Below are positions 52,601-55,600 of a DNA stretch of 64,000 bases, piece after piece. Made by a program: the position numbers. Source of the DNA: an uncultured Candidatus Saccharibacteria bacterium (lineage in GTDB: Bacteria; Patescibacteriota; Saccharimonadia; CAILAD01; BJGX01); contig CAZSVP010000002.1 in the NCBI GenBank assembly GCA_964610335.1, forward strand, positions 146,887 to 210,886, written 5' to 3'. Within the stretch, counting starts at the first letter, position 1. The number at the start of each line of letters is the position of its first letter.

Positions 52601-55600
52601 GCGTACTATCGCCTTTTGCTACTTCAGCATCAACCGGCACCACCTCACCTGGTTTGATTTGAAGTTCATCACCAGGTATAACTTTGCCAACAGCTAAATC
52701 CACATAAGAGCCATCACGTTTGACATGAGCGATCTTGGGAGCTCGCTTGAGTAAACTACTTAGCTCCTTTTGGGCACGTTCTTTGGCGTATTCCTCTAGG
52801 GCCTCGCCGCCAGTGAGCATCAACAGTATCACACCAGCCGCCGCATATTCCTGAAGAGCTAAGGAGGCCAGCACCGCAACAAGAGCTATAATATCAACAC
52901 CAAATTTGCCATGCCACAGATCGTGGCCGATCTTCCATGCCTCTGGAATAACACCCAATATACACAATGCTATTAGTATTTGTTCGCTCAGCTTAATGCT
53001 GCCTGCGAGATAAAGCACCAAACTAATAATCAAAAAAATAACGACGACCAGCAGTTTGCCGTATCTTCTAATAAACAGATTTGCTGATAATTTCATTACT
53101 ACTATGATACATGGTTATGGTGATTCTTGTAGTCACTTTGGTCAGGTATTGACATATTGACTCAAATTTGCTAAGATACTTGTTCGTCTCAAAGTGAGAT
53201 AAATCGCCAACAGCGGCGATTTTTGTTTCCGGGCTTTTCCGGAAACGCCACAAAAACCATGGGAGGTTACAGTGGCAACAACAACCGGGCTCCTGAACAG
53301 GGGCTTTCGTGCAGTATCGGGTGCAGGTGCAGTCGACAACGCCCGTCGGGCAGTCGAGCGACCCCACATCGTGATGGCATCCGTCGAGCTCACGCTCGGC
53401 CAACATCGAGGGATTGATGCCATCGTGCTGGGACTTGGTGAGCAGGCCATGAAGGCAGGCTCAACACCAGCCTTCGTTGGCCAGATCTTCGATCTCGTCG
53501 ATGAGGAGGCCATCTCGCCACAGCTGGCACGCGACTACCTCCATCAGCTGATCGAGGGCAAGTGCTCCGAAGATGAGATGATGAGCCTGCTGGCACCTGA
53601 GATCGCCGAGGTCAAGATCGCCCAGGCGAGACGACAGAAGTCTCGCCGAGAGCACCCCGCCGGTTCCAACTGGGAGCCAACGGTCTCCTCGGTCTAGCCG
53701 AGGAACCAAGAAGGCCACGGCCGCATCCCCACCCGAGGAGCGGTACCGTGGTCTTCGTCATGTCTACGCGTAGTAATTATTCAAAAAGTCTATCTTGTAC
53801 TGTTCAAAATTGCCATCAAGTATCGAATGACGAATGTTGTCAACAAGTGATATCAAAAAATGTATATTGTGGATAGATAACAATGTAGCTGCTAGCATCT
53901 CACCGGCGCGCACTAAGTGAGCTACATACGCAGTGCTGAAGTTTTGACAGGTGTAGCACGAGCACCCGGTCTCGATTGGATCAAGTTTGCCAATGTATTT
54001 TTGATTACCCAGATTCACACGCCCTTGTTTGGTATAAACTGCACCGTTGCGAGCGACACGTGTGGGGCTTACACAATCAAAGGTATCAATACCGGCCTCG
54101 ATACCATTGAAGAGATCGATTGGTTCCCCCATGCCTAGCAGGTGTCGGGGTTTGTCGTCTGGTAGCTCATCGCAAACCCAACCAACCGCCGTAGCAATAT
54201 CATCTTTGTTAAAGCTCCCGCCAATACCAAAGCCATCAAAGTCCATCAAAGCTAGTGTTTGAGCCGATTCACGTCGCAAGTCTTCATAGCGACCACCTTG
54301 CACCACACCATAAAGTGCTTGATAGTTGAATTGCTTGGCCTGTAACTTTTGGTGTTCTGCTAAACTTCGCTCAGCCCAACGATGGGTACGATCCAGAGCT
54401 TCACGTTGGTATACTTTTTTGGCTTGCGGACTGGTACACTCATCAAACGCAAAGGTAATATCGGCACCCAACGCATGTTGGATTTGCATAGATTTTTCCG
54501 GACTCAAGAAATGCTTGCTTCCGTCGATGTGACTATAGAATTCCACACCATCCTCGGTGATTTTGGCTTTGCGAGCATGGGTACTATTCAGCACTCTAGC
54601 CTCCTCACTATCGTCACCACTGGCCACCTTACTCACGCCTTTGCCAAAAGCTTCACCAAGGCTAAATACTTGGAAGCCACCGGAGTCGGTGAAGCTTGGC
54701 CCTGGCCAGTTCATAAACTTGCCAATTCCTCCAGCCTTACCAACAATCTCCTCCCCTGGTCGCAAATGCAAATGATAGGTATTGGCCAGCACCGCCTGTG
54801 CCCCTGTGGATGATACCTGCTCAGGCGTAAGTGCTTTGACGGTAGCTGCTGTGCCTACCACTACAAACGCCGGCGTGTTGATATCACCATGCGGAGTATG
54901 GATAGCGCCAGCTCGCATACTACCTATCGTCTTGCCTACTTCAAAAGAAAATTGTTTCATTGCTATGTATTGTAGCCGCTTTCGTCCTAATTGTCCTTGG
55001 ACTCATCAGATAACGAATTACGTTATGAGCGGCCAGCTTATCGTACTGGTATGCCCGCTTGCTGCGGAACGGATTTTTTGAGACTTTTCTGTCAACTCGG
55101 TACAGGCCCACCGAAGTCGAGCTTGTGCTGCTCGTCAAGGGTTGGCGTTGGCAAGCGCATACCTGTCATGATCAGCGCTGGGCCCAACAGTGCACACGCC
55201 CCCATACCACCTAGAAAGCCTTCCTTGGCAGCATTGGCTACCTTTGACCAATCGGTCGGTCGCCCAGAGCGTCGATGAAGCCGGTAGGTATCAATGGCTT
55301 CGGCTGTAGCGCACAGCGTCCCATAGCCGACAACTGGGTAGACCACTCCCACCATCTGTGGTTGTGCTGCCACAAGCTTGGCGTAACTACGCAATGGATG
55401 CTTCACTTTTTTCTCCCGAGTTCTCACTGACCGTCATTCTGACGATTCAGGCTGCGCTATAATACCATAATTAATCAATAATTACAATATAAACATACTA
55501 TCACCATAGCTCAAGAAACTATAACCATTGTTGAGAGCATGATCGTATGCGGATTTGAGATTATCCCAGCCTGTGAATGCTGCGGCTAACATTAAGACTG

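Follow-up and report, generated by a model that had tools for sequence, protein, structure and literature searches.

How is a gene expressed when an apparent transcription terminator stands between its promoter and its start codon? This arrangement precedes ORF E, one of several GC-rich ORFan cassettes in a 64,000-nucleotide stretch of DNA (hereafter the window) from an uncultured Candidatus Saccharibacteria bacterium. A preliminary description of the window had read the leader of this gene as a transcription-attenuation or riboregulated element. Our analysis supports part of that interpretation, in that the leader is genuine, under selection, and unusual in its degree of structure, with a terminator-like hairpin. 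The proposed layout of terminator versus antiterminator is not borne out.

To our knowledge, gene regulation is almost entirely uncharacterized in Saccharibacteria and other Patescibacteria, and a leader RNA that is under selection and carries an internal terminator would rank among the first cis-regulatory RNAs described for them. Given that Saccharibacteria can now be transformed (PMC10633639), a leader of ∼90 nt is small enough for direct testing. The GC-rich, fast-diverging ORFans may be involved in host–epibiont interaction, and understanding how they are throttled would help to show when the cell uses them. If the hairpin simply terminates transcription constitutively, then the leader would be an ordinary expression-tuning device.

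The promoter and the gene that it serves

The promoter lies at positions 53149–53177 of the forward strand, as had been described. It is of the sigma-70 type, with the −35 hexamer TTGACA at 53149–53154, a spacer of 17 nt, and the −10 hexamer TAAGAT at 53172–53177, which is preceded by the TG (53169–53170) of an extended −10 element (TGc-TAAGAT). The term "perfect" that had been applied to this promoter is too generous because its −10 hexamer matches the consensus at only four of six positions, giving a total of 10 of 12 plus the TGn. A 9-bp palindrome, TTGACTCAA, is located inside the spacer at 53157–53165. The promoter is identical to that of the window at 28–29 of 29 bases in the related loci L002–L004 and at 26 of 29 in L006, a locus from a distant lineage. 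In the intergenic region directly upstream, only 32 of 58 positions are identical.

ORF E (53272–53697, forward strand) starts with GTG and encodes 141 amino acids at 61.5% GC (GC3 0.70), in agreement with the GC-rich gene that had been claimed behind the leader. Its dN/dS values of 0.19–0.44 and its predicted structure, an all-helical model of five helices (pLDDT 74.6), indicate that ORF E is a real coding gene. The core of the protein is acidic and the tails at both termini are basic (pI ∼11.5–11.8). No family match was obtained in Pfam, NCBIfam, or PADLOC, no significant match in PHROGs, and no match in a PDB sequence search or by tblastn in 50,697 phage records. The family comprises only six protein clusters among 5.8 billion, and no homolog is present in the GTDB species representatives.

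All six clusters come from Saccharibacteria and share one location, flanked by a P-type ATPase gene and TGT; the locus is syntenic and part of the chromosome. Among the nine best TGT relatives that were examined, none carries a GC-rich gene beside TGT. Between strains, ORF E diverges far more than its flanks do. ORF E is a small, fast-evolving, lineage-restricted Saccharibacteria gene without a known family.

The leader folds into four adjacent hairpins

Between the promoter and ORF E lies a leader of ∼90 nt, followed by the Shine–Dalgarno sequence GGGAGG (53261–53266), 5 nt, and the GTG start codon (53272). The terminator-like hairpin with its T-run, a second hairpin, and the GGGAGG-5-GTG arrangement were all located where the preliminary description had placed them. 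That account had missed two further hairpins, and the leader has four in total (H1 to H4), all on the forward strand.

Hairpin H1 (53186–53200; GUCUCA-AAG-UGAGAU) is 5′ proximal and begins 0–4 nt past the transcription start site that we infer. The terminator-like hairpin, H2, spans 53201–53228. In the DNA it reads AAATCGCC-aacagc-GGCGATTT (53201–53222) and then TTTTTGTTT (53220–53228), and in the RNA, AAAUCGCC-AACAGC-GGCGAUUU leading into the U-run UUUUUGUUU (53220–53228). H2 starts ∼17–20 nt past the predicted start site rather than the ∼25 nt that had been estimated. Directly past the T-run, H3 (53225–53246) has the sequence GTTTCCGG-gctttt-CCGGAAAC, or GUUUCCGG-GCUUUU-CCGGAAAC as RNA, and its 5′ arm is made partly from the distal part of the U-run. 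Finally, H4 (53247–53276) consists of a GCCAC/GUGGC stem (53247–53251 with 53272–53276) around the Shine–Dalgarno sequence, and the GUG start codon is paired within its 3′ arm.

The linkers between hairpins are only 0–3 nt long, and the leader is double stranded except for its loops. Every U of the U-run is paired in H2 or H3 except two or three. Compared with shuffled sequences, the fold of the leader has a z-score of −4.46, and none of 200 shuffles folds equally well.

Conservation of the leader among relatives

The comparison of the leader covers five distinct sequences, which come from only two lineages. Hairpin arms were compared as taken from the minimum free energy fold of each sequence because alignments fitted to a covariance model or made with MAFFT put L006 out of register. 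This misplacement also explains why no significant covariation is found in the model-fitted alignment. The L006 lineage is distant from the window, with saturated dS and 63–80% amino acid identity in the flanking ATPase, TGT, and queA, and the ORF E proteins are ∼42–43% identical.

The H1–H4 arrangement is reached independently in the folds of all five distinct leaders. The H1 stem, GUCUC/GAGA(C/U), is kept in each of them around loops of AAG, AGAUA, UAG, or AGAGAUA. In L006 the stems of H1, H2, and H4 are kept and every loop is changed; the H2 core UCGCC/GGCGA and the U-run, for example, are retained with a loop of AAAA. For H3, five of eight pairs are altered on both sides in L006 with pairing retained, and L003 carries one further double change (C–G to G–C). 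The H4 arms are invariant in all leaders, and their 20–22-nt loop is conserved at the Shine–Dalgarno sequence only (15 of 22 positions identical between the window and L006). Loop lengths vary from 3 to 7 nt in H1, between 6 and 4 nt in H2, and from 3 to 6 nt in H3.

Since the four hairpins and 26 of 29 promoter bases are kept, the changes in H3 are compensated, and the loops are free to vary, the RNA structure appears to be under selection. Covariation has been demonstrated in H3 alone. For H1, H2, and H4 there is only invariance, which cannot separate a constraint on RNA structure from one at the DNA level or from protein binding. The variable loop lengths are more in keeping with RNA hairpins than with spaced DNA half-sites. 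The outer pairs of H2 and the basal pairs of H3 are A–U or U–A in all sequences, with the U always in the run, whereas pairs in the GC part of H3 occur in either orientation. This orientation of the pairs suggests selection on the U-run itself.

H2 resembles the terminators of the same genome

In the window lineage, H2 has an 8-bp stem with four G–C pairs, a 6-nt loop, and a predicted stability of −10.0 to −10.5 kcal/mol. Its counterpart in L006 has a 7-bp stem, a 4-nt loop, and the U-run UUUUUUU. A G+C stem of at least 5 bp, a loop of 3–8 nt, and a U-run (UUUUUGUUU) immediately 3′ of the stem are the features by which intrinsic terminators are recognized, and H2 has each of them. It resembles the genome's own terminators at gene 3′ ends, such as those after tRNA-Gly (−10.7 kcal/mol) and tRNA-Val (−16.7 kcal/mol), and shares with the tRNA-Gly terminator a design of A-tract, GC core, and U-run. 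From these features, H2 is predicted to terminate transcription. With only four G–C pairs and modest stability, it could instead be a weak or nonfunctional terminator. The U-run also can be accounted for in another way, because each U is a possible pairing partner in H2 or H3.

A hairpin followed by a T-run is not an enriched pattern here, as the 50 such sites in the first 60 kb equal the sum of the shuffle expectations. The case for H2 therefore rests on its conservation in related genomes. No second promoter was found between H2 and ORF E. As a real coding gene, judged by its dN/dS values and confidently modeled helical core, ORF E must be transcribed through H2.

Pattern and covariance-model scans agree with the earlier observation that the other GC-rich cassettes of the window lack this feature. 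Searching the window and seven related loci (L002–L008) with a covariance model of the leader revealed no further copy. The only extra match, in the ribosome-binding region of cassette A, is nonsignificant (10.2 bits, E = 2.4). When JGI metagenomes and IMG/VR were scanned by pattern, the matches were at chance level or absent. The possibility that H2 is a dispersed REP-like element was rejected, as it is unique in the window and among 101 loci, 94 of which have no match.

Search for a switch in the leader

A terminator that is switched in cis requires an alternative fold, and none was found. The pairing probability of H2 is at least 0.997 in the nascent and the full leader alike, and the best structures without H2 are 7–11 kcal/mol worse. 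Among folds of the nascent transcript within 8 kcal/mol of the optimum, the best one lacking the innermost H2 pair is H2 minus this one pair, at a cost of 3.6–3.9 kcal/mol. Constrained folding and enumeration of suboptimal folds, aimed at an antiterminator, yielded no rival helix. H2 and H3 are not mutually exclusive, since they occur together in every predicted fold. The preliminary description had itself named a lack of alternative structures as grounds for abandoning the attenuator layout, and this is the result obtained.

All five leaders do contain a complementarity of 3–4 bp between GGCG in the 3′ arm of H2 and CGCC in the 5′ arm of H4, which could open the start codon. This pairing, proposed by RNAalifold for a truncated segment, was considered as an antiterminator and rejected because it loses to H2 plus H4 by at least 7 kcal/mol. 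Moreover, CGCC is transcribed after the U-run, too late to compete when termination is decided.

Two other checks suggested by the preliminary description were also negative. Rfam assigns no family to the leader; at the gathering threshold the window contains eight tRNAs only, and at E ≤ 10 the region 53100–53320 gives only noise, the best match being to sraL, which lies on the opposite strand and scores 15.8 bits where the cutoff is 39 bits. No conserved ORF for a leader peptide is present in the leader, which has no ATG before 53259. The sole candidate, TTG-TTC-GTC-TCA-AAG-TGA (MFVSK), has no Shine–Dalgarno sequence and is absent in L006. There are no conserved unpaired nucleotides, as stems, U-run, and Shine–Dalgarno sequence alone are kept between lineages. 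Because loops and linkers vary freely, there is no conserved ligand pocket.

A proposed fixed brake and its alternatives

The explanation that we favor, with about even confidence, is that a hard-wired promoter-proximal terminator and a start-codon-occluding hairpin throttle a strong promoter. The leader would thus be a fixed brake without a cis-encoded switch, and the promoter and the four-hairpin leader would together form the expression module of ORF E. H1 would cap the 5′ end and probably shields the RNA from degradation. H2 and the U-run would serve as a hard-wired intrinsic terminator ∼45–50 nt into the transcript, such that mRNA would come only from polymerases that read through. H3 may fold the remaining U-rich stretch, and pairing of the GUG start codon in H4 would lower translation initiation. 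Modulation, if any, would act via trans factors or general conditions that alter termination (Nus factors, NTP pools, temperature). Counting against this explanation, it is not obvious why a strong promoter would be followed by a brake if there is no regulator.

Promoter-proximal intrinsic terminators and constitutive attenuators in 5′ UTRs are known from Term-seq maps of Firmicutes and other bacteria. Like the ORF E leader, they have a hairpin and U-run between promoter and start codon, require read-through, and are predicted to yield a short terminated transcript. In most characterized cases, however, an antiterminator competes with the terminator, a leader peptide is present, or an RNA-binding regulator is known; none of these is detectable for the ORF E leader, where termination is a prediction. 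A riboswitch, T-box, thermosensor, or leader-peptide attenuator would suit the location of a terminator-like hairpin in a 5′ leader and could make use of the GGCG:CGCC complementarity. The stability of H2, the late synthesis of CGCC, and the negative searches described above largely refute such a conformational switch in silico, and we give it almost no credence. A role in mRNA stabilization and translational tuning alone is improbable on balance. In that case, the leader would shield the 5′ end, remove single-stranded AU-rich RNase sites, and set the translation rate through H4, while H2 would not terminate and the U-run would be the partner of flanking A-runs. Stabilizing or start-codon- and Shine–Dalgarno-occluding hairpins are exemplified by the ompA and ermC/aprE-type 5′ stem-loops. 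The ORF E leader resembles these in the position of H1 within a few nucleotides of the predicted 5′ end, in the pairing of its start codon by H4, and in its abutting hairpins, which leave almost nothing single stranded; the pairing of most of the U-run and the modest stability of H2 also suit this role. However, ompA- and ermC/aprE-type leaders normally lack a terminator-like hairpin with a U-run. Furthermore, while other H3 pairs flip, both lineages keep the U's contiguous and on the 3′ side, and H2 with its U-run is indistinguishable from the genome's terminators after tRNA genes.

Another proposal, which we regard as unlikely, is that H2 terminates by default and that a protein or RNA acting in trans gives read-through on a signal such as host contact. 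The factor might be NusG/LoaP-like, N- or Q-like, or Csp-like, or it might be E, acting by means of its basic tails. The invariant, noncovarying stem sequences of H1, H2, and H4 would be expected of sequence-specific recognition, and the promoter spacer, with its palindrome TTGA(C/G)TCAA, is conserved beyond the needs of the hexamers. A strong constitutive promoter, leader hairpins, a terminator, and a first gene for a small protein with arginine-rich tails also are common to the ORF E locus and phage early and late antitermination units (lambda pL-nutL-N, pR′-qut-tR′, HK022 put). Unlike the N/nut, Q/qut, and put units, the leader has no conserved boxA/boxB-like loop, and the loops that proteins usually recognize in boxB, RAT, and ANTAR RNAs vary freely here. 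ANTAR-regulated leaders have two hairpins with conserved hexanucleotide loops, the second overlapping the terminator, whereas loops in the ORF E leader are variable, 3–7 nt long, and without an Rfam match. No candidate factor was identified, and E has neither homology to RNA-binding or antiterminator families nor phage relatives. The promoter and H1–H2 could also constitute a separate gene for a ∼45-nt RNA, either a trans-acting sRNA or a type III RNA antitoxin, with ORF E expressed by leak-through. H2 would then define the 3′ end of this RNA, and the order of promoter, short structured RNA, terminator, and protein gene is that of ToxIN and CptIN loci, where the terminator sets the RNA:protein ratio. 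This is very improbable, since the upstream tandem repeat array of those loci is missing (0 direct-repeat families in 53097–53300), conservation is lowest in the 5′ tail and loops, the single-stranded parts that might provide a seed, and E, with its helical model and no toxin or defense family match in Pfam, PADLOC, or NCBIfam, does not resemble the ToxN/CptN/TenpN endoribonucleases or AbiEii. Hardly any probability attaches to a role for the inverted repeats in DNA, as operators or as recombination sites for swapping of the GC-rich cassette. Identity between L004 and the window does drop from ∼97–100% to 74% exactly at the start codon, and the locus is mosaic, the upstream intergenic region of L002 being like that of L006. 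However, the compensatory changes in H3 and the variable spacing of the arms point to RNA pairing, and there is no integrase in the vicinity; a single recombinase gene was found, 46 kb away. Homologous recombination in a naturally competent organism accounts for the mosaicism without a special site (PMC10633639).

Mosaicism and the 3′ end of the cassette

A bolder and quite doubtful scenario concerns the exchange of coding sequences. The promoter and leader might be a fixed socket for GC-rich acidic ORFan cassettes of Saccharibacteria. Through natural transformation and recombination, strains would exchange the coding parts at a much higher rate than the backbone changes. The terminator would silence a cassette until a factor acting in trans, perhaps linked to contact with the actinobacterial host or to the cassette protein, permits read-through. 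If true, this would be a new attenuation RNA tied to a new hypervariable effector or anti-defense locus in an episymbiont.

At the other end of the cassette, a long GC-rich hairpin, GAAGGCCACGG...CCGTGGTCTTC (53710–53756), lies between the convergent ORF E and TGT genes. Its predicted stability is −32.5 kcal/mol on the forward strand and −29.7 kcal/mol on the reverse strand. The hairpin has no U-tail and is conserved in L002 and L003. It is probably a 3′-end structure shared by ORF E and TGT.

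ORF E locus and promoter

This segment of a Candidatus Saccharibacteria chromosome has a GC content of 45.7%, and its TGT gene is only ∼71% identical to those of the nearest species representatives. ORF E (53272–53697, plus strand; 141 aa, 61.5% GC, GC3 0.70) lies between a P-type ATPase gene that diverges from it (51270–53096, minus strand) and the TGT gene that converges on it (53764–54960, minus strand). Upstream on the plus strand are a −35 hexamer TTGACA (53149–53154), a 17-nt spacer, an extended −10 element TGc-TAAGAT ending at 53177, a leader of ∼90 nt, and an SD sequence GGGAGG (53261–53266) located 5 nt before the GTG start codon at 53272. 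All of these elements, the GC-rich ORF included, were found where the preliminary description had placed them. The promoter was called perfect there; it matches the consensus at 10 of 12 positions, plus the extended −10, and is strong but falls short of perfect. A 9-bp palindrome, TTGACTCAA, occupies 53157–53165 of the spacer and is retained in all lineages, reading TTGAGTCAA (central base G) in L006, a locus of the distant lineage. Since the spacer is kept more than the hexamers require, this palindrome may be an operator.

The convergent ORF E and TGT genes share a hairpin at 53710–53756, with an 11-bp G+C-rich outer stem around a smaller inner helix. It has no U-run on either strand, unlike the A/U-flanked terminators that follow tRNA genes, and so two terminator styles occur in one genome.

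The protein family of ORF E is tiny: 5.8 billion proteins contain six of its clusters at 90% identity, and 1.84 billion contain two at 50%. The gene sits beside the ATPase gene in every contig long enough to show its flanks, with TGT on the other side wherever the contig extends that far (the 500-bp P0002 contig shows no neighboring genes). It is absent from all GTDB species representatives, and no GC-rich gene adjoins TGT in the nine best TGT relatives examined.

Leader structure and conservation

The leader folds into four adjacent hairpins (H1–H4, plus strand); the two that had been claimed are both present, but the total is four. H1, GUCUCA-AAG-UGAGAU, spans 53186–53200. H2, AAAUCGCC-AACAGC-GGCGAUUU (53201–53222), runs into the U-run UUUUUGUUU (53220–53228). 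H3, GUUUCCGG-GCUUUU-CCGGAAAC, covers 53225–53246, and H4 pairs GCCAC (53247–53251) with GUGGC (53272–53276), enclosing the SD and pairing the start codon. Folding is better than in any of 200 shuffles (z = −4.46). A generic scan for a hairpin plus T-run finds no more sites in the genome than in shuffles, so the motif alone is no proof and the case must rest on relatives.

Five distinct leaders were compared: those of the window, L004, L002, L003, and the distant L006–L008 lineage. Between the window and L006 the backbone is deeply diverged, with protein identities of 78% for the ATPase, 80% for TGT, and 63% for queA (dS is saturated for these three), and 42% for ORF E. Immediately before the −35 hexamer, the intergenic DNA is identical at only 32 of 58 positions; the promoter, despite the divergence of the backbone, is identical at 26 of 29. 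Because MAFFT and CM-fitted alignments set the L006 arms out of register, and covariation is therefore under-counted there, arms were drawn from the minimum-energy fold of each sequence.

When folded separately, each of the five leaders shows the H1–H4 series at the same positions. The stems are retained although every loop differs (H1: AAG, AGAUA, UAG, or AGAGAUA; H2: AACAGC or AAAA; H3: 3–6 nt). Those of H1, H2, and H4 are invariant. Of the eight H3 pairs, five are altered on both sides between the window and L006 with pairing kept in all, and L003 carries one further independent flip, C-G to G-C. Arms retained around loops of variable length fit RNA hairpins and not spaced DNA half-sites, which indicates that purifying selection acts on the RNA structure of the leader; in the strict sense, covariation is proof of this for H3 alone.

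No detectable cis-encoded switch

The preliminary description proposed a terminator/antiterminator layout. Our check for alternative folds revealed that H2 and H3 form together, without competition and with no rival fold, an outcome that refutes such a layout in the terms set by the description itself. In all lineages, H2 has a pairing probability ≥0.997 in both the nascent transcript and the full leader. Opening either of its arms by constraint costs 7–11 kcal/mol, and when the innermost H2 pair is left out of the nascent RNA, the best fold is still H2, shortened by one pair. All leaders have a 3–4-bp complementarity between the H2 3′ arm (GGCG) and the H4 5′ arm (CGCC). As an antiterminator, this pairing is energetically far inferior, and it lies downstream from the U-run and so cannot affect the termination decision.

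The leader matches no Rfam family and contains no tandem repeats, and the five leaders share no unpaired nucleotides able to form a ligand or tRNA pocket. No leader peptide is conserved; the sole candidate, a 5-codon TTG ORF, is missing in L006. Thus, no cis-encoded switch is detectable. What survives of the proposed attenuator is a conserved terminator-like element in the leader.

H2 as a candidate terminator

H2 looks like the terminators used by the organism itself: the tRNA-Gly terminator, AGAGCCC-GAAA-GGGCUUU-UUCC, has the same design and a similar energy (−10.7 versus −10.5 kcal/mol for H2). L006 retains both the H2 hairpin and the U-run. Moreover, in the five leaders the A-U pairs beside the run never flip, so that the U's stay contiguous, whereas flips occur freely among the G-C pairs of H3. 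There is no promoter between H2 and ORF E, and the ORF reads clearly as coding (dN/dS 0.19–0.44 and a confidently predicted helical core), so its mRNA must come from read-through.

We give about an even chance that H2 is a hard-wired, leaky promoter-proximal terminator. H1 would then be a 5′ protective hairpin, H3 would sequester the remaining U-rich tract, and H4 would damp initiation of translation. One main rival, a leader that serves stability and translation only and does not terminate, is less likely; the likeness of H2 to the tRNA-Gly terminator counts against it. The other, a terminator that keeps the gene off by default until a putative trans factor relieves it, is unlikely. In silico data cannot tell these three apart. 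The leader adds a new example, with a narrow distribution, to a known kind of cis element and is of modest interest by itself; the hypervariable GC-rich cassettes to which it belongs are more unusual.

Divergence of ORF E

ORF E is much more diverged between strains (window versus L002, L003, and L004) than its surroundings. Relative to L004, dS is 0.07 for the ATPase gene and identity is 97% for the leader, whereas ORF E has a dS of 0.90 and 72% amino acid identity; the break in identity is at the ORF E start codon. The dN of ORF E is 6–25 times that of flanking genes, yet dN/dS is still 0.2–0.44. For L003, dS is 0.68 for TGT versus 0.24 for the ATPase gene. L002 is 93% identical to the window over most of the ATPase gene but only 50%–70% over its 5′ end and the upstream intergenic region, where it matches the L006 lineage instead (window 52960–53148). 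This stretch is a tract acquired from another lineage by recombination, and its end coincides with the conserved promoter.

The divergence of ORF E and the mosaic locus suggest allele replacement by recombination rather than divergence in place. The natural competence of Saccharibacteria (PMC10633639) makes such replacement plausible. The GC3 of ORF E is 0.70–0.79 in both lineages despite their old split, which simple amelioration of a once-acquired gene fails to explain.

The predicted protein has five helices (pLDDT 74.6). In its helical core (residues 41–120), mean pLDDT per 10-residue block is mostly >90 (83–94). The core is acidic (pI 4.3) and the tails are basic (pI ∼11.5–11.8). No sequence or fold relative was found in Pfam, PHROGs, NCBIfam, PADLOC, PDB, or phage genomes.

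Other GC-rich cassettes

The window holds at least seven GC-rich islands (56%–66% GC), E among them, at 3435–4440, 14452–14973, 45362–46245, 53272–53697, 55092–55406, 61499–61921, 62087–62293, and 62296–63840. An ORFan gene or a small operon makes up each island, and except for purH, no island gene matches Pfam, PADLOC, or NCBIfam. In A, B, C/D, E, and G, for which the sequence upstream was read, the island carries an AT-rich promoter of its own and an SD of the GGGAGG or AGGAGG type. Where the 3′ end was checked, in cassettes A, B, D, and G besides E, it forms a long GC-rich hairpin, which mostly lacks a U-tail. Acidic pI values (4.6–5.8) were obtained for A1, A2, B, C, and E, the five proteins checked.

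Compared with four related loci (L095, L098, L099, and L101), the promoter and leader of cassette A (3435–3505) are 96% identical, its M48 peptidase and LemA flanks 87%–88%, and ORF A1 80%. By these identities, conservation ranks as in E: promoter/leader, then flanks, then ORF. Cassettes A and E also share ATTGAC..ATTGA at the −35 region and AACC(N)TGGGAGGTT around the SD. A third small ORF of cassette A (4236–4364, 42 aa, one CxxC motif) is found in L101 and missing in the other three loci.

Cassette F (55092–55406, minus strand; 104 aa), between TGT and queA, possibly encodes a small membrane protein. Its presence varies: it occurs in L002 (96% nucleotide identity) and is absent from L003 and the L006 lineage.

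A large serine recombinase gene (5801–7312, minus strand; Resolvase, Recombinase, and Zn_ribbon_recom domains) adjoins a tRNA-Cys, tRNA-Phe, and tRNA-Gly cluster and lies ∼1.4 kb from cassette A. The recombinase/tRNA region (5215–7312) probably forms the boundary of a mobile element that has integrated. Beside the ATPase gene, the prolyl-tRNA synthetase gene (49968–51233) encodes 421 aa in the window versus 467–468 aa in relatives. L002, L003, and L006 add a DUF1653 gene at this position, and the alignment shows only ∼33% nucleotide identity. Gene replacement appears to have occurred here within genomes that are otherwise syntenic.
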